From a virus, in the IMG/VR virus record IMGVR_UViG_3300025132_000021, positions 1-64,000 of that record: a stretch of 64,000 bases of DNA. One strand, written 5' to 3'. Of this stretch, positions 5,770-59,240 are shown one piece after another. The translations under genes and the position numbers were made by a program. Each line of letters begins with the position of its first letter. Position 1 is the first letter of the stretch. A model generated the notes under the pieces. The model was not told where the DNA came from, made no database searches, and saw nothing but the letters and a program-made list of their open reading frames with translations.

Positions 5770-5780
5770 TTTAAGTATCA
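5770..5780 (+). promoter_or_regulatory. TTTAAGTATCA promoter box
   Basis: 30 nt before ATG 5800. Confidence 0.8.
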
Positions 5781-5799
5781 AAGACTACCTAATACCCTT

Positions 5800-8514
5800 A
5801 TGGTTAGACGCTATGAGGTTTCAGACCTTGATGTTGAAGACATCATAGTATTTGCCCCTAATGCTCATTTGGATTTAGGTTATACACCTTATCCATCGCT
5901 TTTTGAATTAGAGCAAGAAATCTTAGCAGGCGTTCACACTAATTCATCTGGAGAAATTGGTTGCCCTGCTTGCGGTTGTATTGATTTATTCTTGAAAGAA
6001 AGAACTGCGAAAGGAGTTCGTTATCGTTGTATGTCTTGTATGTATGCTACTGAATCGGAGTTTGAATCTGTTAAATCTCGCAAAGACATAACTTTAGCAC
6101 AATTTGGTTTAGGCTTTGAGTGTGCAATATGCGGTGAGGACATAGATTCTTATAATCACGATACAGTTATGCGTCATGTGCGTAAATGTCGTCAAAAAGA
6201 AAATGAAAACTTTTCTGCGGAAAACATGATGTTAGAATTAGGACAGCAAGACCCAGACGACCCAAACAGAATGTGGGGTCCAGACATTATCAGCCCGATA
6301 TTTCCCTTCAAAGGTTATGAAAGACCCACGGAAGAAGTAAGAGCAGATTTACAAAAACATTTGGTTGGACTGGAAATCAGAATGTATGGTCCTCAAAACG
6401 AATCCGAGGCATTAGGCATTAGACAACCGATGGATTGGTGGAAAGATATTGGTTTCAGTGAGTTTCAACCAGCAGGAACTATGGGAAGAGTCACAGGAGT
6501 TTCCATGTCTAACCCAAACCGACCAAAAATCATTGGAGTATGGGTAACTATCATCAGTGGAGGCACGGCCAAACACCCTGTTGGTTCAAGAGTATGGTTT
6601 CATGTTAAAGATTCCTATTTTCCTGATTCTATGAGGCTTGGTTGGACACACGGAGATTATGTCGGCAATCCCAAGAGAGAAGAATACCTAAGAGGCAAAG
6701 GAATTACTAAAGGTTATGAAGCAGAAGATAAACCAGTAGTCCCTCGTTATGTTTATCATGCCACTCCTCAAGCATATTGGGAACAAATTAAGGAACAAGG
6801 TGGCATGACACCACAAATTGGCTACATGACATATCGGGCATTTTTACCCAGATACAAAAAAGCCCACATTGGTCAAGACATTTCTCCTGAACACTATAAA
6901 CAATGGTTGGTTAAGGAACTTGGAGGTCTGAAAATCTGGGTTACTGGACCAAGCAAGGTATCGGTGTATGCCAGTATGATTGAACCCATGAGTTTCTTAC
7001 GAGACAATGTAGTTTTGAAAATTGATACAGAAGGTTTAGACTTTGAATACTATAATTACGATGAGTTTTTTACGCAAAAACCAATCCCCTTGTCTGCGAT
7101 TGAATTAGAGTGGTTGATGGACGGTGAGCGAAGTGATGAAGAATACCCTGATTATTTGTTGCCTACTCTTGACCCTTCATTAGAATCCCTGTTAGAAGAC
7201 GAACCTGAATTGTTGGAAACTCACCCAGAGTTGTTCCGAGATGAACTTTATGAAAGATTTGTGGCGGCGGCTGAAGATAACCAAAGTGATGATTTAATCT
7301 GGGACGAAGAAGCAGGTTTGTTTTACGATTATGTAGAAGTGCCACAACCCGATGGTGAACTCATTGTGGTTTATTGGATTCTCAACGAAGAATTAGACCA
7401 AGTAGGAAAAGCACAAATAAGCCTATTCAACGATAATTTGGAAATTGACAGTATTTTCATTGAACCTTACTATCAACGCCGAGGAATCGCCACTTCATTT
7501 GTTAATCATGTAGTCAATTATTGGGACAGCGAACTTTTAAGATTTTCTGATGCTGTATCTGATGAGGGCGCAGCATTCATTGATTCATTCGCTGCTGAAG
7601 ATAGTTTAGACTATATGAACTATCTCAATGATTTACGAACTTATCCTGAACTACGAAACTTTACTGATGAGCAACTGCTGGCTATGGGTATTGATTGTTT
7701 AGCATTACAAACTGCCAACCGAGAAAAGTTTGATGCTGAAGATAACTACGATTCTACTTATGGAGTCAAGCAAGCCAAAATCCGCAGACGACTCAAAAAG
7801 AAAATCAAGAAGCAGGCAATTATGGGAACAAAGGCGGGTCAATGGTCGGCTCGTAAATCACAAGAACTTAAGCGACAATATGAGGCAGCGTGTCAGCGAG
7901 CAGGTCTAAAACCATACAAGGGTCAGAAAACCAAAAAGCAACAAGACCTTACGGATTGGTCAGACCAACGCTGGCGCACAGCATCAGGTAAAAAATCATC
8001 TACCACAGGCGAGCCATATTTCCCTGCTAAAGCAGTGGCCGCCCTCAAACAAAAAGGACTTTATTCAAAGGCCAAAAAACAGAAACAAGCCGCCACTAAA
8101 GCAGGCAAACAAAATGCCCGCTATTCCGATGACATTAGAAAAGTTGTTAAACAATATCGTAGTGAAAATATGCTTAATCTAAGCATAAATCCATTTGAAG
8201 ATGTAAAATGGGAAGATGATGAAAGTTTAACAGATAGATTAAGGAGAGAAAATGATTCATGGAGAGAAGATATTCAGTGGAAGGCTTGGGAGTCAAAACC
8301 AAGTAAGTTATCAAAAACTTTTATCTTTGAAGAAGAAGAACCATGGATAGAACTTTGGAATCTGGTGTTCTTTTCTGATGCTTTGGCTGAAGCCTCTGGA
8401 GTAGATATTGAATCAGTTGTCAAACAAAATAAAGTTATCATAACTATTGATAAGACAACCACACCACTTGACTTTGTATTATTAGAATACATCAATGAAT
8501 ATATGAGGTTATAA
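5800..8514 (+). CDS. 904-aa multi-module polyprotein-like protein: Zn fingers, ADP-ribosyltransferase-like, GNAT and DUF5872-like basic modules
   Basis: CPAC/CMSC/CAIC..H..C; YVYHATP..IWVT..VVLKID; IDSIFIEPYYQRRGIAT; GTKAGQWSARKSQELKRQYE; modules separated by FSAE/YEAE/AAAE/FAAE/FDAE/YRSE. Confidence 0.75.
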   Translation: MVRRYEVSDLDVEDIIVFAPNAHLDLGYTPYPSLFELEQEILAGVHTNSSGEIGCPACGCIDLFLKERTAKGVRYRCMSCMYATESEFESVKSRKDITLAQFGLGFECAICGEDIDSYNHDTVMRHVRKCRQKENENFSAENMMLELGQQDPDDPNRMWGPDIISPIFPFKGYERPTEEVRADLQKHLVGLEIRMYGPQNESEALGIRQPMDWWKDIGFSEFQPAGTMGRVTGVSMSNPNRPKIIGVWVTIISGGTAKHPVGSRVWFHVKDSYFPDSMRLGWTHGDYVGNPKREEYLRGKGITKGYEAEDKPVVPRYVYHATPQAYWEQIKEQGGMTPQIGYMTYRAFLPRYKKAHIGQDISPEHYKQWLVKELGGLKIWVTGPSKVSVYASMIEPMSFLRDNVVLKIDTEGLDFEYYNYDEFFTQKPIPLSAIELEWLMDGERSDEEYPDYLLPTLDPSLESLLEDEPELLETHPELFRDELYERFVAAAEDNQSDDLIWDEEAGLFYDYVEVPQPDGELIVVYWILNEELDQVGKAQISLFNDNLEIDSIFIEPYYQRRGIATSFVNHVVNYWDSELLRFSDAVSDEGAAFIDSFAAEDSLDYMNYLNDLRTYPELRNFTDEQLLAMGIDCLALQTANREKFDAEDNYDSTYGVKQAKIRRRLKKKIKKQAIMGTKAGQWSARKSQELKRQYEAACQRAGLKPYKGQKTKKQQDLTDWSDQRWRTASGKKSSTTGEPYFPAKAVAALKQKGLYSKAKKQKQAATKAGKQNARYSDDIRKVVKQYRSENMLNLSINPFEDVKWEDDESLTDRLRRENDSWREDIQWKAWESKPSKLSKTFIFEEEEPWIELWNLVFFSDALAEASGVDIESVVKQNKVIITIDKTTTPLDFVLLEYINEYMRL

Positions 8515-8516
8515 GC

Positions 8517-10555: not shown

Positions 10556-10606
10556 ACCTTAACATAACAGAGGTAGTATATCATACTTCGGGTCTTGAAG
10601 TCAAGA

Positions 10607-11107
10607 TTAGAAGAGAGGAGAACAGCCGTTCTCATACCATAGTGGTGATTCTTCTTTCCACCGAGGGCCACTTCCACGATTCATATATCCTTTGCCCAGA
10701 TTGTAATAGTTTCGGTAAGACATTACTGGGTCATCTTTGACCTTAAACTTGTCTGGCATACACACTACAAAAGGTTGTAGTTTGCCCGCAGGTATGTATT
10801 TAGCCTTGCTAATACAATGCTCAATTACGGCTTGGCACTTGTGTTCTCGGCCATAGCGACGAGTGTATTCTCGGCACAATTCCATGCCGTGTTTGCCCAG
10901 CCAAAGGAAGTTTTCACGAGTTGCTGAAGCCCATTTAGTGCATGGGTGCGATACATGAGTTGGACCATATTTGGTGCTACGGTATTTGTGGTTTTGTAAA
11001 GCCGTGCATAACATTTGGGCTGTTTCAATTGGCATCTTAACGGTATGCCGATTGCAGAGTTGTCGGGCAGCAGCACGAGGGTCGGAATCTACGATAAAGA
11101 TATTCAT
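10607..11107 (-). CDS. Pyrimidine-dimer DNA glycosylase (T4 endonuclease V-like family)
   Basis: MNIF...HTVKMPIETAQMLCTA...HPCTKWA...EYTRRYG...SYRNYY. Confidence 0.8.
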   Translation of the reverse strand: MNIFIVDSDPRAAARQLCNRHTVKMPIETAQMLCTALQNHKYRSTKYGPTHVSHPCTKWASATRENFLWLGKHGMELCREYTRRYGREHKCQAVIEHCISKAKYIPAGKLQPFVVCMPDKFKVKDDPVMSYRNYYNLGKGYMNRGSGPRWKEESPLWYENGCSPLF

Positions 11108-11115: not shown

Positions 11116-11340
11116 CTACTGTGGGTTATCTACTAACCACTGTATAAAACTTAATACCTCATTTACCATGTTATCATCTAACTGTTTGACCTCACCGAAG
11201 CGATTACGCAAACAAACCCAGATATGGGCGTAGCCATTACGACCATTCGGGTGTCTGGGTGAGAATGGTAGAGTTTTTGTTAAAATATCCCCTGCTACCC
11301 CTACTGTTTGGGTGATTCTTTGCCAATTTTGTTCATTCAT
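11116..11340 (-). CDS. Small conserved hypothetical protein
   Basis: HPNGRNGYAHIW motif; within minus-strand operon. Confidence 0.65.
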   Translation of the reverse strand: MNEQNWQRITQTVGVAGDILTKTLPFSPRHPNGRNGYAHIWVCLRNRFGEVKQLDDNMVNEVLSFIQWLVDNPQ

Positions 11341-11346: not shown

Positions 11347-12174
11347 TCAACTCTGATAATCAGGACACCACCAAGTCCTACGGCGGTCTGGAGTTTCCTC
11401 TTGAACAACTTTATGTCCATGTTTAGAAACTCTTTTGGAATAGCATTCAAACTCAAAACGGTAATCACCAGTGCTACCATCAGGCAACACATAATCACGA
11501 ATAGTAGCCCCACGACAGTCATAAGAGGCATTGATTACAAAAAGAGTCTGGTCATAAATGGCTCGTAAATTATCGTCCGTGAGTTCTTCTACACTATGCC
11601 ATGGACTAACCTTAGCACGATAGAGAACTTCTGCTTTGATATAGTTTCCGATGCCTGAAACCACCTTTTGGTCCATTAGTGCTTTGGTGATATTCCAATG
11701 GTTTTTCTTTCGTAGACGCATCACGAACTCATCAAAACTCGGAGGGTCATTAAGCATATCAGGACCAAGCGTAGCCAGTTTCTTATCCAGCGTAGAATTA
11801 TCCTTGTGGAAAATCTTGAAAGTTCCAAACCGTCGTGTATCACGATAGTAAGTCAATTTACCATCTAAGGTTTCTAACTTGAGCATCACATGATTCTTTG
11901 GGTTGTAAGTTCTCCAAGTCCCACTCATACCTAATGTATGCCAAATCTCCCATTCACCACCATTTAGTGTGAACCAGATAAACTTTCCTTTACAGTTGAT
12001 ACCATCAATCTTTAATGGTTTATCATCTAATACTGCCCTCAAATCGTGGATTTGGTCTCGCACCTGTTTAGAGCAATAACTCTCATTCTCAAAATGAATT
12101 GCACGCAATTCTTCCCCCGCCAACCGCTTATTCAAACGCTCAACAATACGCTTTACTTCAGGACCTTCAGGCAT
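11347..12174 (-). CDS. mutM: Fpg/Nei DNA glycosylase/AP lyase (zinc-less finger type)
   Basis: N-terminal MPEGPEV, KGKF, HTLGMSG, DTRRFG, LGPD, LMDQKVVSGIGN; start 12174 is 31 nt after TTAATAAG. Confidence 0.93.
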   Translation of the reverse strand: MPEGPEVKRIVERLNKRLAGEELRAIHFENESYCSKQVRDQIHDLRAVLDDKPLKIDGINCKGKFIWFTLNGGEWEIWHTLGMSGTWRTYNPKNHVMLKLETLDGKLTYYRDTRRFGTFKIFHKDNSTLDKKLATLGPDMLNDPPSFDEFVMRLRKKNHWNITKALMDQKVVSGIGNYIKAEVLYRAKVSPWHSVEELTDDNLRAIYDQTLFVINASYDCRGATIRDYVLPDGSTGDYRFEFECYSKRVSKHGHKVVQEETPDRRRTWWCPDYQS

Positions 12175-12200
12175 ACATAAAGTATGTAATATCACTCTTA

Positions 12201-14495
12201 TTAACTAATGCTGACCGAGTTAGCAAAGTGGTCTGCACTGACCTCATCACCAATACGATACTTAACTAATACTTCATAAGTTCCAGTAGTTAAATCACCG
12301 AAAAGTTCTACATCATCAACATCTAAAACAATTGTTCCATTAGCATAAACATTGTGAACACCATTTTCTTGGAAATCACTAATGTCATAATAAGTTCCAT
12401 TTTGATATAGCGTAATACTTATTTCAATAGCCTCATAACAAGAAGATTCATCAGGACCATCATGCGTAATATCCCATGTTAGTGTCAAGTTATCATCAGC
12501 GTCTTTACCCAGAACCAATGAATTAGAAGTTAGAGTTAGGTTGCTACAATCAACAGGCTCATCTGACTCCGTGATAATTTCTTGATTCAAAGCACTTCGT
12601 TCAATAAATTGTTGAGTTCCATTTCCATCAACCCAAATAGCATACCAATAGAAATCATAGTTAGTAATTTCTTCATCAGTAAAGTTATCTAATTTCAAAA
12701 ATCGGGTATCATCAGTATAGCCTTGAATGTATTGTAAGCCAGTAACATATTTGATAACTTCTTCCTGTGCGACTTCGCCCGCAGGATACACAATAAATTG
12801 AGTGGAAACATTGTATCCTTCTAAATCGTTAGTATTGTATCCACAATCTAAATCATAAAAGAAGAAAGCCTCATGGTTTTCAGTAATGTTGAAGTTCCAA
12901 TCAAATAAGTTGATTTCACAAACTTCTTCAGGTTCTTGGTAATTTACATACACCCACGCATGAGATTCTTCAGCAATATCTTCTTCATTCTGGAAGATGA
13001 TTACTTCAGGTTGCCAATCTCCATTAGGAACATCATTGAAAGTGTAAGCGTAATAATTGCTGGTTTCACTAATGCTATTTTCGTGAGTAATATCTTCTTC
13101 CTCGTTATCATCAACAGGGATTAAGTTTATTTCAATATCCCATGGGTCATTACAATCAGTCCCTTCGGTTTGGGCGATATAAAACATTACAGTTACATCT
13201 GTTTCCGAGACAGTGGCTTGTAGATTATCAATAACCGCTTCACAAGGCACATAATCAGGAATCTCGTCTACGACTTCAGTATTGGTCATCTCACAACAGT
13301 TTTCTTCTTCGCCTTCAATCCACCAACGGAACTCAACTTTCCAATCACCATCTTCTACATCACGCATTAACTCATTATCATCTTGATTGATGTTGAAATA
13401 AGTCATACCTATGTCTTGAACATAATAGTTGTTGTTAGCAATAAAATAATCTTGGTAACCATCATTCTTATACAGGGCTAATTGCATCTGGATAGGAGTA
13501 GGGTCATTACAATCACCGTTGTCTTGATATTCTACATACAAGTTCAAATCATTACCATTAGCAGTTAGGACTAATTCATTGACTACTATATCAGTATTAC
13601 AATCATCATCTGGATTCTCCATAGTTACTAATGCACTTGGACCACTCCAATGGCTTCCATCGGAGTAATAATCTACACGCACGATGTAATCGCCCACAGG
13701 CACATCATACACATGATGACTGATTCTAAACTCATCATGGAACTTTTCATAAGAAGACCAAGTATCATATTCTTGACCATTTTCATCATTGATAACTTTT
13801 ACTTCAAAGAATCCTTGGTCCATGTGTCGGTTGCATCTGTTCCAATCATTAAACAAAACTACTACTTCTATATCATTGTTGTAGCCTTCGCCGTTAGCAT
13901 CCCAATCACGAATTAAAACTTCGTCCCAACGCCAATCTTCATTACAGGGTGGACCAGTGGTATCCCAATAACAAGAACCATCATCATTAGTAGCATCTGG
14001 CATATAATTTTCTGCATCGGGGTCTGTGCAACCCCAAATCTCATAGTATTCATCATCTTCCCAACTGTTTCCACCATCTTCATTATCTAAAAAGAAGTCT
14101 AATCCTACTCCACCAGTTAGTAATAACATCACAGGGGCAATAATAACGATAATTTTACGAAGGTTTTGAGCCTTTCGTTCAACCGAAGCAATAGCACGGT
14201 CTACAATATCTCCTTCAAGAGTAGTTTCTACTGCTACTTCTGTTTTGTTATTGCCACCATTTAATACAGTATTATCAGAAACTTGTTGGTTGATATTTTG
14301 AACAGTAGCAATCAATTCTGCCGCTTCTTTTAATTGTTCTACTAATGAGGCATCCTTTTTTTCCTCATTAGAAAGATTAACTACTCCATCATCTAATAAA
14401 TCTTCAATAATCTTTTGTTCAGAACGACCTGTGGCTTCTGCGATAATTTTTGCTTTTTCTCTTAGTTCATCAGTTACTTCATCATCAGTCATCAT
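12201..14495 (-). CDS. Large acidic single-pass membrane/surface protein with repeated Ig-like beta domains
   Basis: TM IIVIIAPVMLLLTGGVGL; GCTDPDAENYMPDATNDDGSC motif; repeated beta-rich acidic domains. Confidence 0.75.
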   Translation of the reverse strand: MMTDDEVTDELREKAKIIAEATGRSEQKIIEDLLDDGVVNLSNEEKKDASLVEQLKEAAELIATVQNINQQVSDNTVLNGGNNKTEVAVETTLEGDIVDRAIASVERKAQNLRKIIVIIAPVMLLLTGGVGLDFFLDNEDGGNSWEDDEYYEIWGCTDPDAENYMPDATNDDGSCYWDTTGPPCNEDWRWDEVLIRDWDANGEGYNNDIEVVVLFNDWNRCNRHMDQGFFEVKVINDENGQEYDTWSSYEKFHDEFRISHHVYDVPVGDYIVRVDYYSDGSHWSGPSALVTMENPDDDCNTDIVVNELVLTANGNDLNLYVEYQDNGDCNDPTPIQMQLALYKNDGYQDYFIANNNYYVQDIGMTYFNINQDDNELMRDVEDGDWKVEFRWWIEGEEENCCEMTNTEVVDEIPDYVPCEAVIDNLQATVSETDVTVMFYIAQTEGTDCNDPWDIEINLIPVDDNEEEDITHENSISETSNYYAYTFNDVPNGDWQPEVIIFQNEEDIAEESHAWVYVNYQEPEEVCEINLFDWNFNITENHEAFFFYDLDCGYNTNDLEGYNVSTQFIVYPAGEVAQEEVIKYVTGLQYIQGYTDDTRFLKLDNFTDEEITNYDFYWYAIWVDGNGTQQFIERSALNQEIITESDEPVDCSNLTLTSNSLVLGKDADDNLTLTWDITHDGPDESSCYEAIEISITLYQNGTYYDISDFQENGVHNVYANGTIVLDVDDVELFGDLTTGTYEVLVKYRIGDEVSADHFANSVSIS

Positions 14496-14842
14496 TCTTC
14501 CTCCAACATCACAACAATAGGTTCATCTTCTTCTTGTAATCTGTCTCTGGCTCTCCGAATATCGTTTTCAGTTTTATGTTGTCTACGAATAGACTCTATG
14601 TATTCTTCTTCTTCAGCGTTCCAACGGTCAAAGAATCTTGAAATAGCCATATATGCAGGACCACTTAGAATACCAAGAACTGCGATGTAGGCTTCAATGT
14701 CCTCTCGGACTTCTGGATTTACAAAAGCCGTAGTAATCAATTGATACGATAAAACCATGAAAACAAGGATAAGTGGAAGGGATACTAAAGCCACCATAAT
14801 GTTGTTAAATGTCAATCGGACATCCCATTCAATCTTAGACAT
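14492..14842 (-). CDS. Two-TM membrane protein
   Basis: Two hydrophobic helices; promoter 30 nt upstream. Confidence 0.7.
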   Translation of the reverse strand: MSKIEWDVRLTFNNIMVALVSLPLILVFMVLSYQLITTAFVNPEVREDIEAYIAVLGILSGPAYMAISRFFDRWNAEEEEYIESIRRQHKTENDIRRARDRLQEEDEPIVVMLEEE

Positions 14843-14861: not shown

Positions 14862-14872
14862 TGATACTTAAG
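14862..14872 (-). promoter_or_regulatory. CTTAAGTATCA promoter box (minus strand)
   Basis: 30 nt before ATG 14842. Confidence 0.75.
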
Positions 14873-14893
14873 TTTTACGCTTTAATGCGAAAC

Positions 14894-14901
14894 TTTATAT
14901 C
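14894..14901 (+). promoter_or_regulatory. TATA box for ncRNA
   Basis: TTTATATC 30 nt before start of first helix (14924). Confidence 0.6.
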
Positions 14902-14923
14902 AGTGAAAACTCCTATGTAATTT

Positions 14924-15196
14924 AGACGAAGGAGGTTCTGTAAGGTTAAGGAAGGCCAACCAATCAAGCGAGATGGATTAGCGGGTAGTAGCGAACAGCG
15001 AACCCTGTGAACCAACCTCGTTTGAGGTAGGAGATAACTTAACATATAATGCTCTCACCGCAAGTGGGCGGCTCTTACGCAAATATAAAATAGAAAGTGC
15101 TTTTCCACGAAAGAGGCAAACACTTTCAAAAAAGAAACGAGGTGGTATGCAGCGAAATCGGTTTGCTACTGAAAGTAACTGCGTATCATCTCACCC
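14924..15196 (+). ncRNA. Structured ncRNA of about 270 nt, unknown class
   Basis: No ORF; multiple helices with G-U pairs (14924-14938/15009-15023; 15027-15033/15072-15078; 15093-15099/15121-15127; 15139-15152/15179-15192); 10-bp long-range pairing 14987-14996/15161-15170. Confidence 0.7.
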
Positions 15197-15263
15197 CATT
15201 CCATTCATTTTCACAAACCATTAAGTAGTAGAATATCTAATGTATTATTAGGAGACACCGGGC

Positions 15264-15584
15264 ATGAACCCACATTTAGAACAAGTTTATGGCGTTATTT
15301 TTGAGCATTGGAATCGTGAAAATAACCAAGTCAAAATCTCTATGCCAGTCCTGTTAATTATTGAAAATCATTTTGGGTCAGATGGAGAAGATTTAATGAT
15401 TAACATTCAAGATTTGACCCTCCGTTATTGGTTATGTCGCAGAGACATTGTAGACCACATAGAACTTTCTATGCCAGATTTGCCTTTGGAAATTATTCCT
15501 AAAGAAGTAGATAAAGTTTTGAAGCGAGTATTAGGTTTAGACGATTATACACGCAGATACATTAGAGATTCATTATCAGGGTGA
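15264..15584 (+). CDS. Hypothetical protein
   Basis: ORF with upstream TTAAGTAG box and AGGAG SD. Confidence 0.6.
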   Translation: MNPHLEQVYGVIFEHWNRENNQVKISMPVLLIIENHFGSDGEDLMINIQDLTLRYWLCRRDIVDHIELSMPDLPLEIIPKEVDKVLKRVLGLDDYTRRYIRDSLSG

Positions 15585-15771: not shown

Positions 15772-15802
15772 TTTATATGGGTCATCGGACTTATGTTTAA
15801 GT

Positions 15803-16381
15803 ATGAGCCGTAAAATTGTGAACATGGTAGCCAGCACCAGACTAACCGACACCATTGATTTGTATGATGTCGCAAACACCCTTGACCTTGATTTTGAGGC
15901 CGAACAATTCCCGGGCATGGTCTATCGTGTCGGAGAAGATACTCACGGAGAAGGCGCACCTAAAGTTTGTTTGCTACTCTTTGGTTCTGGTCGTGTAGTT
16001 GCCACAGGAGCCAAGTCTTATGATGATGTAGTTATCGCTATGAATCACATTGTTGATGACCTCAAGAACCATGAGTTTGAACTCTGGGATTTTGATGAGG
16101 ACGACATTCAAGTGCAAAACATTGTTATGACTTATGATTACGGACACACACTTCACCTGCACAATCTTGTGCTGGCACTTCCGTTTGAGCGAAGCGAATA
16201 CGAACCAGAGCAATTCCCCGGATTGATTTTCCGCCTTGAGGAAACTTCAGGAGTCTGTCTGATTTTCTCATCAGGCAAGTGTGTTATCACAGGAACTAAC
16301 TCTCCTGACGAAGCAGAAGAAGCCATTGAGGAACTCAAGATGGAACTTGACGCTGTGCGTAGTGTTTCTTCTATTGTTTGA
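15803..16381 (+). CDS. tbp: TATA-box binding protein
   Basis: Two TBP repeats: NMVAS..EQFPGMVYR..LFGSGRVVATGAK and NIVMT..YEPEQFPGLIFR..IFSSGKCVITG; TTTATATG box 31 nt upstream. Confidence 0.97.
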   Translation: MSRKIVNMVASTRLTDTIDLYDVANTLDLDFEAEQFPGMVYRVGEDTHGEGAPKVCLLLFGSGRVVATGAKSYDDVVIAMNHIVDDLKNHEFELWDFDEDDIQVQNIVMTYDYGHTLHLHNLVLALPFERSEYEPEQFPGLIFRLEETSGVCLIFSSGKCVITGTNSPDEAEEAIEELKMELDAVRSVSSIV

Positions 16382-16420
16382 TACTAACTTTTAAGTAGCA
16401 GCGTCGTTGAATTATCACTC

Positions 16421-17137: not shown

Positions 17138-17148
17138 TTTAAGTATCA
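17138..17148 (+). promoter_or_regulatory. TTTAAGTATCA promoter box
   Basis: 30 nt before ATG 17168. Confidence 0.8.
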
Positions 17149-18703: not shown

Positions 18704-18761
18704 AACCCATATACAACGAATCACTGATATAAAATCTTACATTTATTTAACTTACCAAAAC

Positions 18762-18997: not shown

Positions 18998-19032
18998 TTT
19001 ACTTCATATAGGTGCTACTCTTTAGTAGTAGT

Positions 19033-20588: not shown

Positions 20589-20671
20589 AAACGGCCTACC
20601 GAGAGACAACCTTTAAGTAGTAGCAACATAGATTACCCTTATTCCGAGTCATAGACGAGGAGGAAAGTGCC

Positions 20672-20857: not shown

Positions 20858-20888
20858 TTTTATATCACTCCTACATGATATGTAGAAT

Positions 20889-21547: not shown

Positions 21548-21744
21548 AAAGTGTAATCCGACCTTGGTTTGGGTTGTTAGCCTTACAACCCTTAATTTTA
21601 ATTTGGTGTGCCTTGTATGGAATGTCCTACTGGGAAAATATGGGTCCATTTAGTTTAATCACTACTGCTTACCTTATGCCTGTTTATCATTACTATGAAA
21701 AATGGTATCCCAAATCTTTAAGTATCAAAGATGATTTATCTTAA
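21538..21744 (+). CDS. Small membrane protein
   Basis: Two hydrophobic segments. Confidence 0.5.
   Translation: MSLKSVIRPWFGLLALQPLILIWCALYGMSYWENMGPFSLITTAYLMPVYHYYEKWYPKSLSIKDDLS
21717..21727 (+). promoter_or_regulatory. TTTAAGTATCA promoter box
   Basis: 30 nt before ATG 21747. Confidence 0.8.
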
Positions 21745-23538: not shown

Positions 23539-23570
23539 AGTTAATAACGGTGTTGCATAGTATCCCTGCT

Positions 23571-24106: not shown

Positions 24107-24117
24107 TTTAAGTATCA
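24107..24117 (+). promoter_or_regulatory. TTTAAGTATCA promoter box
   Basis: 30 nt before ATG 24137. Confidence 0.8.
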
Positions 24118-24343: not shown

Positions 24344-24384
24344 TAAGAGCAATCTTTAAGTAGTCGTGGCACTAACCAAGAGTT

Positions 24385-27205: not shown

Positions 27206-27237
27206 TTTTATATGAGTGAGCGCATATAGTTAAACTT

Positions 27238-28895: not shown

Positions 28896-28959
28896 AATCC
28901 TACTTAGTTTGCACGACTATTTAATCTCTTTGGCTTTCAGTATTGCCCTTAGCCAAAAC

Positions 28960-28970
28960 TTTAAGTATCG
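28960..28970 (+). promoter_or_regulatory. TTTAAGTATCG promoter box
   Basis: 31 nt before ATG 28991. Confidence 0.75.
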
Positions 28971-28990
28971 GCTCAACCAATGTTATATTT

Positions 28991-29437
28991 ATGCGTCGTA
29001 GGATTCTTGTTCCCATCCGAGATGACCCAGAGCCTACCGAAGACGAAGCCCGTTTAGGATTATTAAATTGGTTGTCTCAACCCAGAGTGATTTCTTCACC
29101 AGAAGACACCCAATTACTTAGTATTTTTGCCGCCCGCAATATAGCCCCTAATGGCCGAGCCAGCATGGTTCATCCTTACAAAACCTGTTATGCTAATGTA
29201 GATGAGGCTAAATCTGAATTAGTAGTCCTTTTTTATGATTATTTTACCAAATATCTTTCCGAACTGGGTGCTACACTTGAAGATTTTTCATGGAGTTATG
29301 ATTCATCAGGTAATTTGCAGTTAAAATACGAAGAAGACACACCCGGAAACTCGGTCTTAGCAGCAATTCAATTACAAGACGCAGAAGTTTCTTTTGAATC
29401 AGTTATGGAAGCCATCACAGAATCTTTGATTCCTTGA
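28991..29437 (+). CDS. Hypothetical protein
   Basis: Start set by promoter spacing. Confidence 0.65.
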   Translation: MRRRILVPIRDDPEPTEDEARLGLLNWLSQPRVISSPEDTQLLSIFAARNIAPNGRASMVHPYKTCYANVDEAKSELVVLFYDYFTKYLSELGATLEDFSWSYDSSGNLQLKYEEDTPGNSVLAAIQLQDAEVSFESVMEAITESLIP

Positions 29438-29473
29438 AATCTTTTAAGTAGGTCGTCCGTATTAGGTGATATT

Positions 29474-30339: not shown

Positions 30340-30370
30340 CTTCAAATAGGTGCTAACACTTATTCTAACT

Positions 30371-32030: not shown

Positions 32031-32122
32031 TTGTGCGTAGCCTCGCACAAGACCAAAAATAGACCGCAGCAAAGCATTAAGTAGTAGAGTTAATCATGCA
32101 ATAAATTGTTGGAGGAATCATT

Positions 32123-34258: not shown

Positions 34259-34292
34259 CCATCTATTCCAATAAGCCTAAGCCTTGCCAATC

Positions 34293-34303
34293 TTTAAGTA
34301 TCA
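34293..34303 (+). promoter_or_regulatory. TTTAAGTATCA promoter box
   Basis: 30 nt before ATG 34323. Confidence 0.8.
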
Positions 34304-34322
34304 GTTCTGCATTAGACTATTT

Positions 34323-35000
34323 ATGGTGCTTGAGTTTTATCCCATAGAGTTTGATGATGACTCGGTAGGATTCGTAGCAGTAGAGTCAGAGTTTGAACCT
34401 TGGTTAATTGCAGCCGTAGGTGTTGGTTTTGAAGATATGAGTTATTCTGTTCTTGAAGAAGACGATGATGGCTTAGTAGAATTGATTATTGACGGGGACG
34501 ATTTTGACAACCTTCAAGATTTGTATGCAGAATATCAAACCTATGGTTGGGCAGTTATTGATGACGATGATTATGCAGAATGGGCTGAAGCCTTTTCAGC
34601 CGAACAAATGAGTGATGAAGATTATCTCTTAATGATTATAGAGTTTGATGAGAAAAATCCACAACCTGCGAAACCTTATCATATAAAGTCAAGTCTTTAC
34701 GAAGATGGCACAGTCCCTTCAATGGCATTCTTTTTGGGTGGGAAAACGGTCAATCCAAAAGTAATGCTCAAAGCAATTAGAGAAGGCAGAGTTGCTCGCC
34801 TCAATCGTAATGCCGACACCAAAGGCTACTATCGTGGAATCAATCTTGACCGCTTTTCTGGTAATAAATCTAACCGCCGAAACTTTTCACAAACTCGTCG
34901 TAATCTTAAGAAAGATATGTTCGGTTCAGTATCCCTCGGCAGCATCCTCACAGGTGTTGCAGCCCTCGGAACAATTTTGTATCTGGTTAATAGGAAGTGA
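34323..35000 (+). CDS. Tail-anchored modular protein (acidic module / FSAE / basic module / TM)
   Basis: C-terminal TM LGSILTGVAALGTILYLVNRK. Confidence 0.7.
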   Translation: MVLEFYPIEFDDDSVGFVAVESEFEPWLIAAVGVGFEDMSYSVLEEDDDGLVELIIDGDDFDNLQDLYAEYQTYGWAVIDDDDYAEWAEAFSAEQMSDEDYLLMIIEFDEKNPQPAKPYHIKSSLYEDGTVPSMAFFLGGKTVNPKVMLKAIREGRVARLNRNADTKGYYRGINLDRFSGNKSNRRNFSQTRRNLKKDMFGSVSLGSILTGVAALGTILYLVNRK

Positions 35001-35144: not shown

Positions 35145-35155
35145 TTTAAGTATCA
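35145..35155 (+). promoter_or_regulatory. TTTAAGTATCA promoter box
   Basis: 30 nt before ATG 35175. Confidence 0.8.
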
Positions 35156-35690: not shown

Positions 35691-35701
35691 TTTAAGTATC
35701 A
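35691..35701 (+). promoter_or_regulatory. TTTAAGTATCA promoter box
   Basis: 30 nt before ATG 35721. Confidence 0.8.
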
Positions 35702-35720: not shown

Positions 35721-36170
35721 ATGCCTTATTCCGACCCTGCTAAGAAAAAAGCCTATCAAGATGCTTACAATAAAAGATATTATGAAACTTACAAAGATGC
35801 GAAGAATCTGGTTGGCAAAGCCACTGATTCTAAATCACAACTACGCCAAAAGAAAAAACTTTGGTTAATTCATAAGTTAGGAAACAAATGTGAACTTTGT
35901 GGCATTCAAGAGCCAGAAGTATTACAAGTTAAAACCACCAATAAAACACCTGTGCAAAAGTGGAATAATAACTATTACAAATCTATTTATGATTATTCTT
36001 GGGACAATTTGGAAACTTTACATCATTCTCTTAAGATTACTTGTGATGTTTGCTTACAAAAGAACCTCAAATCTACTAAGAAAACTTTGCAGACATTGTT
36101 TGAAGAAACAGAAGACCTTCCCAGAGGTTATTCCCTTGATGAAGATTTAGAACCAGAGACTAATCTTTAA
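35721..36170 (+). CDS. HNH-like treble-clef protein, catalytic His apparently lost
   Basis: LGNKCELCG...LKITCDVC; basic N-terminal helix. Confidence 0.55.
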   Translation: MPYSDPAKKKAYQDAYNKRYYETYKDAKNLVGKATDSKSQLRQKKKLWLIHKLGNKCELCGIQEPEVLQVKTTNKTPVQKWNNNYYKSIYDYSWDNLETLHHSLKITCDVCLQKNLKSTKKTLQTLFEETEDLPRGYSLDEDLEPETNL

Positions 36171-36176
36171 GTATCA
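36166..36176 (+). promoter_or_regulatory. TTTAAGTATCA promoter box
   Basis: 31 nt before ATG 36197. Confidence 0.8.
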
Positions 36177-36196
36177 GAGCAAACTAAGTGATAATA

Positions 36197-37912
36197 ATGC
36201 CTGTCTTTTTGATTACTGGATATGATGGCGAGGATGCCATCTTTTACAGAGAAACTCCTCACCATAATGGAGTTGGGCCGTTGTTAAATCAAGCAATTCG
36301 TGAACTATCTCAACTCCCTAATTCAATGATTATTATTGAAAGTTTGCATGAAGATTCACCCGAAACTCAAATGGAAAAGCATATTCCTTTTGCAGATTAT
36401 GAAGAGTTTTATGTAGATGAGTGGGACGCAGAATCTACTAAAAAGTCAGGTAAAGTAATTACCATGTCTGGCAAACCACACAAACCTCGTAAGTTGAAGC
36501 AAGACCAAGGCATTAGCCCAGAAGAAGCAATTCAAAGAATAGCATTTCGTAGTGAAACAAGTGATTGGGTAATTGAAGAAGTTAGTATTTATGATTCTAC
36601 TTATGGCAGTAAGGCTGATGGTTCACTTTACAATCCAGATTCTAATGAACGCATAGAGTTTGAAGAAGCAGATGTTCGCATGGATTATTACATCCCACCA
36701 ATGGAAAACATTTATGTAGATTATGACGAAGACGAGGACGAAGACGAAGATGTTGAGGCGGTTGTAGAAGAATCCATGATGGAAGCCGAAGGATTCTATG
36801 ACGAGGATGGCATAGGTCCTAAGTTTATGGCGGAAGGAAAAAAGAACTGTGGCTGTGGTCAAGACCCATGTAAGACTTACGGTGCAGAAACTTTTGAAGC
36901 ACCCAAAACCATGACCAAAACTCAAGCCAAGAAGAAGTTTATTGCTTTGGCTCAACCCTACTGGATAAAAGCACTAACTAAATTGAAGGAAGGCTATATC
37001 CAAGAGAAAAAGGATGACGACAAACGGAGAGGCGGTGAATCTGAATACTTTGAACAGTATGATTATGATATTGAAGACACAAACACCTATCTCAAGATTG
37101 CTAAATCTCAATCCAAGATTATGAACATCATTGGTTGTGATGATGGAGATACAGTCCTTAGAGAAATGATTCCTGACGGATTTTACCACCTTATCAACTA
37201 TCCACGAGAAGATTATGATACTTGGGAAACCACAATGGCTTATTTTGAAGGACCCAAAACAATTAAAAAACAATTGAAAGCCTTGTTGCCTTTTATTGAG
37301 GGCAAAGTTACGGTCAAGCCAAAGTCAAAGGCTAAGAAACCTAAATACTATCTTCATTTTGGTGAGGGTTTTACTGCTGATAAATGTGTTTATACTGGTA
37401 AAAAGTATGCTATGAACACAATTCGTTCCGCCAAAGCATTAGCAAATCAGATGTGGAATCTCGGACCTATGCCCGGTATGAATCGTGGATATGCAGATTT
37501 TACCATCAACGGTGAACATTATGGCAATATAGTAACATGGGAAACAGAAATTATAGATGCCGACACGGGAGAAGTGGTGGATTATTGGACACCATCAAAA
37601 GAACAAAAAGCCGCATATAAAAAGAAGGCTAATGCTATCAAAAAGGCTGCTAAACCTGCGGCAAAGAAACCCAAGCCCAAGCCACGGGCAAAAGCCTCTG
37701 CTAAGAAATCTAAGGCTAAGGCTAAAGCCAAGACTGGCCGCAAAGCACCTACAATTTCAGCCACCAAGCGAAAGATTGGAACTCGGATGCGAGGCAACGA
37801 TGGTAAAATGTGGGAAGTCAAGAAATCTGGAAAATCACAACGATGGATGGCTGGTGCAGAAACTCAAGAGTTTCGTTCACCATTAGATGACTCTTTTGAT
37901 GAAATACTATGA
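36197..37912 (+). CDS. Polyprotein-like modular protein with acidic modules and Lys/Ala-rich (H1-like) C-terminal region
   Basis: WDAE, FRSE, MEAE, FMAE, YGAE, AGAE junctions; KKAAKPAAKKPKPK; RKAPTISAT..GTRMRGNDGKMW..QRW. Confidence 0.75.
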   Translation: MPVFLITGYDGEDAIFYRETPHHNGVGPLLNQAIRELSQLPNSMIIIESLHEDSPETQMEKHIPFADYEEFYVDEWDAESTKKSGKVITMSGKPHKPRKLKQDQGISPEEAIQRIAFRSETSDWVIEEVSIYDSTYGSKADGSLYNPDSNERIEFEEADVRMDYYIPPMENIYVDYDEDEDEDEDVEAVVEESMMEAEGFYDEDGIGPKFMAEGKKNCGCGQDPCKTYGAETFEAPKTMTKTQAKKKFIALAQPYWIKALTKLKEGYIQEKKDDDKRRGGESEYFEQYDYDIEDTNTYLKIAKSQSKIMNIIGCDDGDTVLREMIPDGFYHLINYPREDYDTWETTMAYFEGPKTIKKQLKALLPFIEGKVTVKPKSKAKKPKYYLHFGEGFTADKCVYTGKKYAMNTIRSAKALANQMWNLGPMPGMNRGYADFTINGEHYGNIVTWETEIIDADTGEVVDYWTPSKEQKAAYKKKANAIKKAAKPAAKKPKPKPRAKASAKKSKAKAKAKTGRKAPTISATKRKIGTRMRGNDGKMWEVKKSGKSQRWMAGAETQEFRSPLDDSFDEIL

Positions 37913-38176
37913 GGAATTATTATGCACCCAAATACAATAGAAGCAGTTCGCAAATACCTACGAAACAAAGCATTAGATGAAACATATTCTTATTTCGGAG
38001 TAGATTAACTATGATTTATCATTGTTTGCATTGTAATCAACCTATAATGCCCGGAGAATCCTCCATTAGATTACATGGTTCATCACCAGTTCACTTGACT
38101 TGTCAAAACAATAATACCTTTACTGCACCATGGGAACATAGATAAGTTTATATTGGTCATTACATATAGTATTACT

Positions 38177-38557: not shown

Positions 38558-38652
38558 GCATCACGCCCCAAACTTTAAGTAGTTGATAAGACCTATTGTT
38601 TAGTAGAGGAAACAGTGGGTTTCCTATGAACGACAAATAAAAGGTAATTTTA

Positions 38653-40365: not shown

Positions 40366-40469
40366 AGTCTATAATTTAACTTGTTATGACGGACGAGATT
40401 TCATTACGAAATCTTCTCTTGAACTCGTTAAAGAGTAGTGTTAAATAGGTGAAACCACCTACACTAATT

Positions 40470-40703
40470 ATGAACCCCGCCAAACTTACACCCGTTCAAA
40501 TGCGTGTCCTTTGTAGCCGAAATGAGTTAGAAACATTTGTCAAGCGTAGACTTTCTACCTTAAACAAAAGAAGTGCTGATTCATGGAATAAGCGAAACCA
40601 AAAAGTTCAGCGTTCAGAAGTTAATTTTTCTAATATCAATAAAGAAACATTGGTGTTCATGGCTTCGGCTTTGAGCAAGTGTGAGCGTAAAGACAATCTT
40701 TAA
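40470..40703 (+). CDS. Small basic protein
   Basis: TTAAATAG box 29 nt upstream of ATG 40470. Confidence 0.55.
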   Translation: MNPAKLTPVQMRVLCSRNELETFVKRRLSTLNKRSADSWNKRNQKVQRSEVNFSNINKETLVFMASALSKCERKDNL

Positions 40704-40709
40704 GTATCA
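40699..40709 (+). promoter_or_regulatory. TTTAAGTATCA promoter box
   Basis: 30 nt before ATG 40729. Confidence 0.8.
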
Positions 40710-41239: not shown

Positions 41240-41250
41240 TTTAAGTATCA
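41240..41250 (+). promoter_or_regulatory. TTTAAGTATCA promoter box
   Basis: 31 nt before ATG 41271. Confidence 0.8.
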
Positions 41251-42203: not shown

Positions 42204-42236
42204 AGACTTAAGTAGTTGAACTTACCATGATTATTC

Positions 42237-45948: not shown

Positions 45949-46015
45949 TAGTCTGCGAGCCTATATGCACACAAACTTACTCAAACTTTAAGTAGTAGTA
46001 AATCAAAATAATACT

Positions 46016-58200: not shown

Positions 58201-59204
58201 ACGACCGTGAAACTTTGTTAGAACTTTTGGCTTCTACTATGGATACCATTTCAGGCAAAGGCGCACCGGGCGGAAAAGGTTCAGGAGTTGCCAACCCAAC
58301 AGCGATTGTTGCTTCTAAGAAATTATCAGCCAAGACCCAAGCCAACGCACAACGCTATTCCGATACAACTTCATTCCAATGGAGAACCTATCAAGATTCC
58401 ATCGGAACATGGGGTCGTATGCTACAACTTGATGGAACAAGTGGTGTAGGAGGAGGCGCAACTGATGTTTTCACCGCATCCCAAACTTCTACGAGTCAAA
58501 AAGTTGCTGCTTCTTTTGCAGACCAAGCCCTAATGATTACAGGCCGTATGGAAGTCAAAGAACCCTCTAAGCGAGCCAGCGTTGCAGGTTCAGCCAGTTC
58601 CATGCAAAGAGACCAAATGATTACCCAACTCAACAAAGTTGAAATGGCATTTGCATCTTATCTGGGCGAAGGAGTTCGGATTCTAAGCGCAGCCGACGGC
58701 TCAACAGAAACCATGACATTTAATCAGTTAATGTCGGCTTGTCGTGAGTTTGTCACTCAATACCCTGCTCGTAAAGACATTACCACAGGGGCTTTTGAAG
58801 TTAATGGAATAGAAGTAGACCTACAAACAGAAGGTTTAATGGCTTGCTTCCCATTAGCCCACACAGCAGGTGCGCCTATGTCTACTGAATACACAGGTGA
58901 TGATTCTTTGCGTTTGTGGGTTCGTTTGTTTGAATCCAACCTAACTGGCAAAAAGGCAGCCACTCAATCAGGAGGTTCGGCTTTCGTAACTCTTAACTTT
59001 ACTATGGGTATCACTTCTAACTGGGCAACCAAGAAGGGAGATTTCCTTAATGTTGTTCCTTCAACAGATGATGACAAGAAAGCCTACATTATTGAAACTT
59101 ACAATGGTTCAGACCTACAAGACACAGGAAACTTGTCCAAGACTGACCTACTTAATTATCAATTCATGTTTGCAGAGTCTCTCAAAGAAGACACGGCTTA
59201 TTGA
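55236..59204 (+). CDS. Giant MoxR/RavA-like AAA+ ATPase with large insertions
   Basis: Walker A GIPGTGKT; Walker B FFNEANR; VLGLIAERKV; DTNP; AFIDRID; lid ALAFLRGKSYV..VTAHR. Confidence 0.85.
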   Translation: MVDEVEDMGLTVPEDVEEVMETLIEEVVEPTPVEPKLSGSIKEQLTALVGEDGVSTLEEVAKSTYKDLDEFAKITVIDTALDSLEIFTGKNRSPLNMVALDADGNTIDLDDAGMELADKGYEGFSLDSVFETTVFEPGFSPENMGTALKEVFRAKLTLGDWEAKQKTHTELLDPVRKAMTQLGEVFGFDNYEHLEMFFAAWLMKDSTCRLSGIPGTGKTTVIESAAVLLCNSYGFNKQSRFVAPIRADPYTMEELFGENRSYVAQEYPSGMEYNLTYSNSAYETVRNDWDEWRFTSWSRPGGRNRSGAYLYDMSFLHPSGKRDGEPFQKKALEIGNFYKLLNNCYVVQAPVQGFTDPSEGKSEGKELLKQLEEDQIQTVVAPIKLLNADGTLADFGTPLVYDVYDVRGNKHQFPMQVRFPDVNMAAETENTQNYKWILEQGDATEFIQDGYGLFTDAGRSEGYGFRQYLIENFVDLRSKDARISGKWKPILEEMLEEIGVAKIDYEKRADEVLYGIEIQQSTVTDKIRDAQISTYEFEPVPRPIVTQPIKFFNEANRSQAGVEDAVLGLIAERKVEYRGKSFDSPNFVAWMDTNPHQKGNDLAFIDRIDMELLFKSISLGERYSQLSGRFGGGGGLAPQEQIVSKLAAGGDIGFTALRFGNLANLWQFVQKQVGFAPPGQQPGTSTYDALREISYISVLFTQRFLPRNTTLKSGNETFNVSAKQDFNESPLMDFSVTTNTNEEGKSNIKLQSDIRTTYSQHTPSNIDRVLGFRFTNSLVKLSSALAFLRGKSYVTRQEILDGLPYVTAHRLGRAKSSKGEIQGLPAGLQFNNEQEWIREAIVNGYLLQETNIGFSQGGLPLMDIWDLYYRRCVDALKSAPALFWYEQQVLIPLHKALIEAGADVGNKFTPVHWHIATMVVQNEKSATMQSLTKPYRTYAHGDDYQSNYNHYLTRVFSNPNPSKTTADQSLYDYYQLRGEICSEPNLFSDDRETLLELLASTMDTISGKGAPGGKGSGVANPTAIVASKKLSAKTQANAQRYSDTTSFQWRTYQDSIGTWGRMLQLDGTSGVGGGATDVFTASQTSTSQKVAASFADQALMITGRMEVKEPSKRASVAGSASSMQRDQMITQLNKVEMAFASYLGEGVRILSAADGSTETMTFNQLMSACREFVTQYPARKDITTGAFEVNGIEVDLQTEGLMACFPLAHTAGAPMSTEYTGDDSLRLWVRLFESNLTGKKAATQSGGSAFVTLNFTMGITSNWATKKGDFLNVVPSTDDDKKAYIIETYNGSDLQDTGNLSKTDLLNYQFMFAESLKEDTAY

Positions 59205-59240
59205 GAAAGTTTAAGTAGTTGAAGCCCATAAGGGATAGTG

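Follow-up and report, generated by a model that had tools for sequence, protein, structure and literature searches.

Phage sigma cascades are known from T4, in which gp55 serves the late TATAAATA promoters, and from SPO1, with gp28 and gp33/34. For the archaeon Halobacterium NRC-1, it has been proposed that TBP and TFB paralogues choose between sets of promoters and so take the role of alternative sigma factors in archaea. The prevailing view is that archaeal viruses depend on the TBP and TFB of the host, and reviews list only small virus-encoded regulators (PMC5569661). Promoters of the rudiviruses SIRV1 and SIRV2 carry a virus-specific GTC right after the TATA box, as Kessler et al. 2004 are cited in PMC5569661. 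A TFB gene is present on the genome map of the Aoguangviridae (magroviruses) of Poseidoniales (PMC10768690), halovirus HF2 has promoter-bearing intergenic repeats (PMC8707807), and poxvirus VITF-3 belongs with TBP/TFIIB-like factors (PMC12917281). In the literature searched, we found neither an archaeal virus that encodes TBP together with TFB nor a promoter class with a G in its box. Here we analyze a 64,000-nucleotide stretch (the window), which is the first 64 kb of the 160,342-bp IMG/VR record IMGVR_UViG_3300025132_000021 (G000). The record encodes its own TBP and TFB, and those of its genes that have a promoter-like box fall behind either ordinary TATA boxes or a TATA-like box, TTTAAGTA, with an invariant G at position 6.

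About 75 genes of the record are headed by a near-invariant TTTAAGTA box situated 30 bases 5' of the start codon. The 11-mer YTTAAGTATCR, which defines the box variant called class A below, occurs 12 times in the window against 0.17 expected, and none of 100 shuffles reaches 12; all 12 sites listed in an earlier note on this DNA were recovered. TTAAGTAG occurs 19 times against 2.24 expected. Across the whole record, TTAAGTA has 91 sites, and the distance to the ATG of an open reading frame (ORF) of at least 40 amino acids is 29 nucleotides (nt) in 44 cases, 30 in 11, and 28 in 3. At every class A site the ATG lies 29–30 nt past the first T of TTAAGTA, equivalent to 30–31 nt from the first base of the 11-mer, and the same 29–30 nt separates box and ATG in each of ten TTAAGTAG examples that the note had listed. 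The rigid spacing it described therefore stands, while its range of 29–31 nt is corrected to 28–31 nt, mostly exactly 29 from TTAAGTA. Its proposal that this spacing corrects start codons also holds: starts move from 314 to 335, 4644 to 4713, 28943 to 28991, 34284 to 34323, 36188 to 36197, 53113 to 53134, and 59238 to 59241, and that of tbp moves from 15740 to the ATG at 15803, which gives the protein an N-terminus, MSRKIVNMVAST, that coincides with the start of TBP repeat 1.

Anchoring on the box resolves three groups, in agreement with the idea of promoter-like boxes in discrete classes. Class A has the consensus AAtC-TTTAAGTA-TCAg and heads 22 genes in the record. Class B has the consensus AA.c-TTTAAGTA-Gt.G (GTC 14, GTT 7, GGT 5, GTA 4, AGT 4) and heads 40 leaderless genes. 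The split between them is set by the bases at −22 to −19, which in class B read GTCG, GTTG, or GGTG; the TC group of class A is discrete, the sole other T-initial trinucleotide after the box being a single TGA. Class C, with about 15–23 members in the record, consists of TTTTATAT or VTTAAATA followed by (C/G)AGTGAT or GGTG. Class C boxes satisfy the AT-only feature of a TATA box, which classes A and B fail by their invariant G, and the 7-mer TTAAGTA is far more invariant than ordinary TATA boxes. That the G following TTAAGTA in class B is a product of the TAG stop codon of the upstream gene was considered and rejected, as this is true in only 3 of 40 cases.

The surroundings of the box are those of an archaeal promoter. 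In ~60 cases the 8-mer TTTAAGTA spans −30 to −23, counted from the A of the start codon, matching the archaeal TATA position if transcription starts at the ATG. Upstream of it is an AA at −35/−34 that resembles a B recognition element (BRE), and the base at −1 is T or C in 58 of the 62 class A and B promoters; we infer transcription start sites at a pyrimidine-purine initiator on the A of the ATG. Shine-Dalgarno-like sites precede 63 of 134 box-less genes versus 1 of 22 genes in class A, 8 of 40 in class B, and 0 of 15 in class C. We are confident that the boxes are promoters of leaderless transcripts and that class C differs in meaning from classes A and B. Translation would proceed from a leaderless mRNA for the gene that opens each unit and via Shine-Dalgarno sites for downstream genes. 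In 12 of the 62 class A and B promoters the TAA of the box itself terminates the upstream gene, as does the TAG of TTTAAGTAG in 3, so gene end and next promoter are fused there.

The classes differ in the genes that they head. Class C heads tbp, the operon containing tfb, the genes for Fpg, pyrimidine-dimer glycosylase, deoxyribosyltransferase, FEN, and ERCC4-PCNA, and also both PolD subunits, an MCM-like gene, an XPD-like helicase, a primase, and Get3. Behind class A and B boxes are mostly ORFans and cut-site-rich multi-domain proteins, together with a packaging-type ATPase, a glycosyltransferase, an AAA ATPase, and the presumed capsid pair. Informational units make up 14 of 23 in class C versus 4 of 62 in classes A and B (Fisher p = 4e-7). 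This bears out the earlier claim of an ordinary-TATA class before tbp and the replication, repair, and nucleotide genes, with TTTAAGTA classes before ORFan and virion genes; in the window, ordinary boxes precede tbp (TTTATATG at 15772), Fpg, the nucleoside deoxyribosyltransferase, the FEN operon, ERCC4/PCNA, and Get3. The frequency of a cut-site-like tetrapeptide per 100 amino acids is 0.56 in class A, 0.29 in class B, and 0.25 in class C units, with 0.24 expected from composition.

We propose a two-step programme in which host factors fire class C and the viral TBP-TFB pair then drives classes A and B, perhaps with another factor. From sequence, we hold the chances of this programme to be about even.

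Related genomes, found via TBP-based retrieval among virus records, carry the same arrangement over considerable divergence. Genes for TBP and for TFB are both present in G002 (166 kb, with inverted terminal repeats), whose orthologues are on average 54% identical to those of G000, and in G001 (150 kb; 42% on average), the TFB being 77% identical in G002 and 60% in G001; G003 (84 kb) belongs to the lineage of G001 and has an identical TBP. TTAAGTA-N21-23-ATG sites number 47 in G001, 61 in G002, and 26 in G003, versus 0–3 in the reversed control. An ordinary box precedes tbp in three diverged lineages (TTAAATAGGTG in G001/G003, GTTTATATGGGTGA in G002, TTTATATG in G000), and both tbp and tfb are behind class C boxes in G000, G001, and G002, with tfb of G001 having its own TTAAATAGGTG box at 30 nt. 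Class is partly conserved between orthologues: from G000 to G002, 7 class A promoters remain A and 16 class B promoters remain B, 1 goes from A to B and 7 from B to A (p = 0.011). In two fragments, G004 and G005, the TBP is 54% identical to that of G000 and TTAAGTA is nearly absent. They use TTAAATA or TTTATSTA boxes in place of TTTAAGTA, and the promoters there that resemble class A have TTTATCTA, TTTATGTA, or TTAAATA with TCAGAA(G) after it. G or C at box position 6 recurs across the virus group.

The G could in principle be a by-product of restriction-site avoidance, with TTTAAGTA replacing an unusable TTTAAATA and having no regulatory meaning. G000 is without 57 of the 64 6-bp palindromes and 7 of the 16 4-bp palindromes (ACGT, AGCT, CGCG, CTAG, GATC, GTAC, and TCGA, each with zero occurrences), where the missing tetramers are expected 150–630 times in 160 kb. 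This looks like anti-restriction selection in a record with two C5 methyltransferase genes. Since TTTAAA (61 expected) and TATATA are among the absent palindromes, the textbook boxes TTTAAATA and TTTATATA cannot occur in G000, where class C boxes read VTTAAATA or TTTTATAT(C/G). TTAAATA is never preceded by T in G000, G001, and G004, and C never follows TTAAGTA in G000 because GTAC would arise, a tetramer that is wholly absent. Relatives share most of the avoided palindromes, and G002 retains ACGT, TCGA, and TTTAAA. That genome has 34 TTTAAA and uses TTTAAATA in class C, yet the G is invariant in its 73 TTTAAGTA boxes of classes A and B, and is therefore under selection in its own right. Likewise, VTTAAATA is available and used in G000, but for class C only, and avoidance leaves the link between class and gene function unexplained. 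We regard a by-product origin of the G as very improbable.

The viral TBP is a 192-amino-acid protein (P0001) encoded at 15803..16381 on the plus strand, with two PF00352 matches (E = 5e-46) whose repeats score 68 and 90 bits within this one ORF. Alignments to 2Z8U and 1MP9 span the whole protein; those to 1AIS and 1PCZ come in two segments. In the tree, the viral TBPs group together (100/100 support) on a long stem, apart from cellular TBPs, and members of this clade occur in 342 protein clusters and on hundreds of marine contigs, many from Tara samples, with contigs of up to ~170–190 kb. The separate long-stem clade and its wide occurrence indicate that tbp is old and retained in the virus group. 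Fixed differences of the viral clade from 79 cellular TBPs are L39M, T55V, C67A, L128F, V142I, K149S, and C162I. We take V142I to fall at the position of yeast TBP I194, an altered-specificity residue, and K149S to lie in the C-terminal stirrup. All viral-clade differences are common to G004 and G005, both of which are without the G-box.

Further features of these proteins were observed. The viral clade is without two cysteines and one lysine that are conserved in cellular TBPs, the lysine being placed in the C-terminal stirrup. A 7-residue insertion at TBP residues 44–52 is present in G000 and G002 (GEDTHGE / SPATHGP) and absent from the other four viral TBPs; by our reading of the alignment it would sit in the stirrup loop of the first repeat. 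In public bins, viral-clade TBPs are filed as Nanoarchaeota, Euryarchaeota, Thorarchaeota, Cyanophyceae, and 'bacterium', and a TBP inside the viral clade is found on a 657-bp 'Nanoarchaeota' contig. Such cellular-named bins are probably viral contigs binned with cells.

The partner factor is encoded outside the window. The tfb gene (G000:139124-140107, minus strand) specifies a 327-amino-acid protein with two PF00382 matches of 86 and 72 bits, in which an N-terminal CxxC...CxxC zinc ribbon is followed by two cyclin-like repeats, and its operon is behind a class C box, CTTAAATAGGGG, at 140922. G000 thus has one TBP and one TFB. The earlier idea of TBP alone as the switch factor falls with this gene, since any switch would be made by a TBP-TFB pair. 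We found no RNA polymerase subunit gene and no TFE gene in G000; in the absence of a polymerase gene, the host enzyme must be used. A TTTAAGTA box at 15796..15803 (plus strand) also lies over the tbp start codon and presumed start site, and in G001/G003 the interval from the TATA box to the tbp start codon contains TTTAAGTA. At a box frequency of ~1 per 2.4 kb of strand, any given 30-nt window would include one by chance in ~1% of cases. This box could be an autoregulatory operator that shuts tbp off once the late factor accumulates.

In the proposed two-step programme, host TBP and TFB would fire class C early, and the viral TBP-TFB pair made from class C would accumulate. This pair, alone or with another viral DNA-binding protein, would direct the host polymerase to classes A and B, and the TTTAAGTA box over the tbp start site might then shut tbp off. 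Extended to its full form, the proposal is that a widespread marine archaeal virus group uses its TBP-TFB pair as the counterpart of a sigma cascade, passing from host-type promoters to virus-only TTTAAGTA promoters with two sub-classes set by the four bases after the box and with self-shut-off of tbp; we put this forward as a tentative and, taken whole, rather doubtful reading.

Several observations count against such a switch. The DNA-contact residues on the concave sheet of the viral TBP, namely Asn and Val of strand 1, the paired Phe residues, and Leu, Val, and Thr of each repeat, are canonical; they do not vary among six viral TBPs and match P. woesei TBP (N7, V9, F36, L58, F60, V66, and T68 in the first repeat set; N106, V108, F138, L153, F155, V161, and T163 in the second), in what we assume to be the correct mapping onto yeast TBP numbering. 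The BRE-reading helix of the TFB is equally canonical and almost identical to that of P. woesei TFB in 1D3U. The contact residues are the same in G004 and G005 despite their other box core, and only one alignment column separates G-box TBPs from the others, and it is not DNA-facing. Of 31 orthologue pairs, 8 switch their A/B assignment, and in G001 class A promoters are scarce and other subclasses (GCG, GGAAG) occur. PolX, ribonucleotide reductase, endonuclease VII, and the ligase operon are informational genes behind A or B boxes. Start sites and temporal order are both inferred, the order from gene content, and the cellular comparison may have missed the host. The suggestion that the viral TBP acts as a late-sigma-like factor on G-boxes accordingly fares unevenly: it gains from the link between class and gene function and from the ordinary box before tbp, and it loses from canonical contacts that are also present in relatives without the G-box. 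A search for TBP residues that co-vary with the G-box and might read the G returned none on the DNA-facing surface, and the alignments give no sign of TBP as the reader of the G.

These same residues suit our main rival explanation, in which the viral pair serves supply and not specificity. Viral TBP and TFB would then be ordinary factors that top up or replace those of the host, after host shut-off or titration by ~75 strong promoters per genome copy, and all classes would be read by any TBP/TFB, differing in strength or in other regulators. The DNA-reading residues of both proteins and the sameness of the TBP contacts in relatives with and without the G-box fit this explanation, as does a C-terminal stirrup motif, EYEPEQFPG, that equals the cellular one, so that the viral TBP may be able to pair with host TFB. 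Ordinary TBP would be expected to bind less well to a box with a G at position 6. Under a supply function it is then hard to see why the G should be invariant and selected even where TTTAAATA is allowed, why the class split should track gene function, and why the box should not be enriched in the cellular genomes searched. We judge the supply explanation unlikely.

This last point draws on a search of Thermoplasmatota. TTTAAGTA-N20-22-ATG occurs at most ~16 times per genome in 401 genomes across the phylum, mostly not above the reversed control, and in 201 genomes the unanchored 10-mer TTTAAGTAGT does not exceed 15 occurrences in any one genome and is usually rarer than its control; G000 has >50 anchored sites in 0.16 Mb. 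Box enrichment was found in none of the 401 (ATG-anchored) or 201 (unanchored) Thermoplasmatota genomes, a set that may miss the host. The anchored motif is in slight excess in two cell genomes, G374 and G368, which do not evidently use it: their genes are led by Shine-Dalgarno sites, with no ATG-anchored box, and their upstream words are the ordinary TATAAA, TTTAAA, and TAAATA. Best cellular TBP matches have 39–49% identity and are spread over several phyla. A ribonucleotide reductase search of the 401 Thermoplasmatota genomes at E <= 1e-60 gave nothing, at a threshold that was too strict, and a scan of IMG/VR with the 14-mer TTTAAGTATCAGAA gave only single chance matches on unrelated contigs. 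Among Get3 homologues, the few organism names present look like mis-binned viral contigs.

A further explanation assigns the class elements, namely the G-T-A box end together with TCARAA or GTCG at −22 to −17, to a separate viral DNA-binding protein that recruits or blocks the basal factors, leaving TBP and TFB as bystanders for class choice. Such a protein would be akin to known archaeal activators and repressors. The WYL_2 protein (17168) and the HTH_20 protein (21077) are candidate readers, as are small zinc-ribbon ORFs, for instance that at 15589. TCARAA is kept beside the box in G004 and G005 though the core differs (TTTATCTA, TTTATGTA, or TTAAATA), and the element is therefore older than the TTTAAGTA core. 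A dedicated reader would also fit the unusual invariance of the 7-mer relative to ordinary TATA boxes, and rudivirus promoters offer a parallel in their virus-specific GTC directly past the TATA box (PMC5569661). Against it, no such factor is tied to any class, and the element abuts the box where TFB and TBP sit, which would leave little room, judging from the complexes 1AIS and 1D3U as matched by sequence only. We consider a separate reader with TBP and TFB as bystanders quite unlikely; the two-step programme itself leaves a place for another viral DNA-binding protein beside the pair.

The window has 12 class A boxes. The first, at 5770..5777 (plus strand; TTTAAGTA then TCAAAG), serves the ATG at 5800 of a 904-amino-acid multi-domain protein with a GNAT domain, and the only one on the minus strand, at 14865..14872 (CTTAAGTA then TCAAAA), serves the ATG at 14842, with genes of 116 and then 764 amino acids. 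The remaining boxes, all on the plus strand, are at 17138..17145 (ATG 17168, the WYL_2 protein), 21717..21724 (ATG 21747, 514 amino acids), 24107..24114 (ATG 24137, 68 amino acids), 28960..28967 (a TCG variant; ATG 28991, 148 amino acids), 34293..34300 (ATG 34323, 225 amino acids), 35145..35152 (ATG 35175, 103 amino acids), 35691..35698 (ATG 35721, 149 amino acids), 36166..36173 (ATG 36197, 571 amino acids), 40699..40706 (ATG 40729, 68 amino acids), and 41240..41247 (ATG 41271, 310 amino acids).

Class B boxes in the window are all on the plus strand. Leaderless examples begin with 305..312 (ATTAAGTA then GGTGAT; ATG 335, 275 amino acids) and 16390..16397 (ATG 16421, 235 amino acids), followed by 24355..24362 (GTCGTG after the box; ATG 24385, 275 amino acids), 29443..29450 (ATG 29474, 106 amino acids), and 42207..42214 (ATG 42237, 114 amino acids, in an operon with a 951-amino-acid gene). 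Further boxes are at 45987..45994 (ATG 46016, 140 amino acids), 47772..47779 (GTCGTG; ATG 47802, 306 amino acids), 48718..48725 (AGACTT; ATG 48749, 128 amino acids), 49290..49297 (ATG 49320, 133 amino acids), 50244..50251 (GTCGTT; ATG 50273, 247 amino acids), and 51531..51538 (ATG 51561, 376 amino acids). The last two head long units: 53104..53111 precedes the ATG at 53134 of a 698-amino-acid gene followed by a 1322-amino-acid gene, and 59210..59217 the ATG at 59241 of a 444-amino-acid gene followed by a 939-amino-acid gene.

Orphan box sites supply several leadered class B promoters, including those of ribonucleotide reductase and the presumed capsid pair (81.4–82.8 kb). The box at 32076..32083 (ATTAAGTA then GTAG) stands 47 nt upstream of the class II ribonucleotide reductase ATG, and GGAGG lies in the interval. 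The box at 4673..4680 has a short leader to the ATG at 4713 of a PolB-exonuclease-like protein; that at 15220..15227 leads to the ATG at 15264 of a 106-amino-acid ORF upstream of the zinc-ribbon ORF and tbp; that at 20612..20619 leads, with GAGGAGG in its leader, to the ATG at 20672; and that at 38574..38581 leads to the ATG at 38653 of a 570-amino-acid TSP3-repeat protein. Of such leadered boxes in the window (e.g., 15220, 20612, 32076), 3 of 5 read TTAAGTAGTAG and are followed by a 40–60 nt leader with a strong Shine-Dalgarno site, and leadered TTAAGTAGTAG boxes may be a further subclass. Outside the window, at G000:81389, a class B box (TTAAGTAGTC) is found 71 nt before the first presumed capsid gene, with a GGAG leader, which places the presumed capsid genes in class B.

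Class C boxes on the minus strand are at 12198..12205 (GTTAATAA then GAGTGA), before the ATG at 12174 of the Fpg/Nei glycosylase; at 11142..11149 (TTTTATAC then AGTGG, with a leader), before the ATG at 11107 of the pyrimidine-dimer glycosylase; and at 18727..18734 (TTTTATAT then CAGTGA), before the ATG at 18703 of a 158-amino-acid ORF. Plus-strand boxes include that at 15772..15779 (TTTATATG), 31 nt before the tbp start codon, and those at 19003..19010 (TTCATATA then GGTGCT; ATG 19033, followed by the PolD small-subunit-like gene at 19254), 20858..20865 (TTTTATAT; ATG 20889, followed by the HTH_20 protein at 21077), and 23540..23547 (GTTAATAA then CGGTGT; ATG 23571, nucleoside 2-deoxyribosyltransferase). 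They continue with 27206..27213 (TTTTATAT then GAGTGA; ATG 27238, followed by the FEN / 5'-3' exonuclease gene), 30341..30348 (TTCAAATA then GGTGCT; ATG 30371, the ERCC4 nuclease followed by PCNA), 38146..38153 (GTTTATAT; ATG 38177, 126 amino acids), 40440..40447 (GTTAAATA then GGTGAA; ATG 40470, 77 amino acids), and 46442..46449 (GTTAAATA then GGTGCT; ATG 46473, the ArsA/Get3 ATPase).

Two more boxes of this kind converge in the gene-free stretch 14880-15220; the earlier note had put ordinary boxes before two non-coding RNAs. The plus-strand class C box at 14893..14900 (CTTTATAT then CAGTGA) has no ORF behind it and is a candidate promoter of a structured non-coding RNA (~14925-15215); the plus-strand RNA 14925-15215 folds at −87.6 kcal/mol (z = −4.3). 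The minus-strand class C-like box at 15083..15090 (TTTTATAT) converges on the 14893 box and could give an antisense or short transcript, with a fold behind it of z = −2.0. The non-coding stretch 14880-15230 had no blastn match in G001, G002, G004, and G005 and no Rfam match; nor did Rfam at gathering threshold match anything else within the window.

The record is a large linear virus of archaea from the ocean, with 99-bp inverted terminal repeats at its ends and a G+C content of ~40%. By Pfam, window proteins include TBP; a PolD small-subunit-like protein, PCNA, FEN, and ERCC4; Fpg and pyrimidine-dimer glycosylase; and class II ribonucleotide reductase, dCMP deaminase, nucleoside deoxyribosyltransferase, MazG, and NUDIX, together with the Get3/ArsA ATPase and numerous ORFans. 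Beyond the window, G000 encodes PolD DP2, PolX, an MCM-like ATPase, an XPD-like helicase, primase, ligase, the two C5 methyltransferases, PP2C, a glycosyltransferase, and AAA/HerA-like ATPases. Genes are on the plus strand to ~106 kb and on the minus strand from ~106 to 160 kb, both pointing inward; class C units are mostly in the outer parts and the A/B block is central. The window has no tRNA genes, and megablast of 19 kb against the phage collection gave zero matches.

Collectively, G000 has a full TBP-TFB pair of its own, is without a polymerase gene, and separates ordinary from virus-specific core promoters cleanly; its virus group is frequent in ocean metagenomes. Should the pair indeed read the TTTAAGTA classes, this would be the first archaeal case of viral takeover by swapping basal initiation factors, and it would offer a natural experiment on how TBP and TFB cope with a G·C pair inside the TATA box. 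The fixed 30-nt spacing offers a reliable setting of start codons and transcription units in a large, mostly ORFan virus group.

Compared with known systems, the promoters of G000 share with archaeal BRE/TATA/initiator promoters (Sulfolobus/Saccharolobus, Haloferax) an 8-bp AT-rich box, which would be centred near −26/−27 if transcription starts at the ATG, a purine-rich BRE, a pyrimidine-purine initiator, a presumably leaderless first gene, and internal genes with Shine-Dalgarno sites. They differ from these by the G at box position 6, by a 7-mer that is near-invariant over ~75 promoters, and by the elements TCA, GTCG, or GTGAT after the box. In SIRV1 and SIRV2, most promoters carry a short virus-specific element immediately past the box, and class B, TTTAAGTA-GTCG, is alike in this; rudiviruses, however, encode no TBP or TFB and use those of the host, whereas G000 has two alternative elements, an ordinary class, and a viral TBP-TFB pair. 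Magroviruses and HF2 resemble it as archaeal viruses, respectively, with a TFB and with repeated intergenic promoter motifs in classes. The nucleocytoplasmic large DNA viruses (poxvirus, African swine fever virus, mimivirus) have a virus-encoded TBP/TFIIB-type pair and short, uniform, stage-specific promoter motifs, but they infect eukaryotes and carry their own RNA polymerase, whereas G000 is without an RNA polymerase gene and its TBP and TFB are canonical in sequence. The haloarchaeal TBP/TFB pairs are cellular paralogues, while the G000 pair is viral and of its own old clade. The proposed likeness to phage sigma cascades is that a viral initiation factor made from host-type promoters would re-aim the host RNA polymerase to a uniform late class; in phages these factors are sigma, whereas in G000 the proposed redirection would be the work of TBP and TFB.

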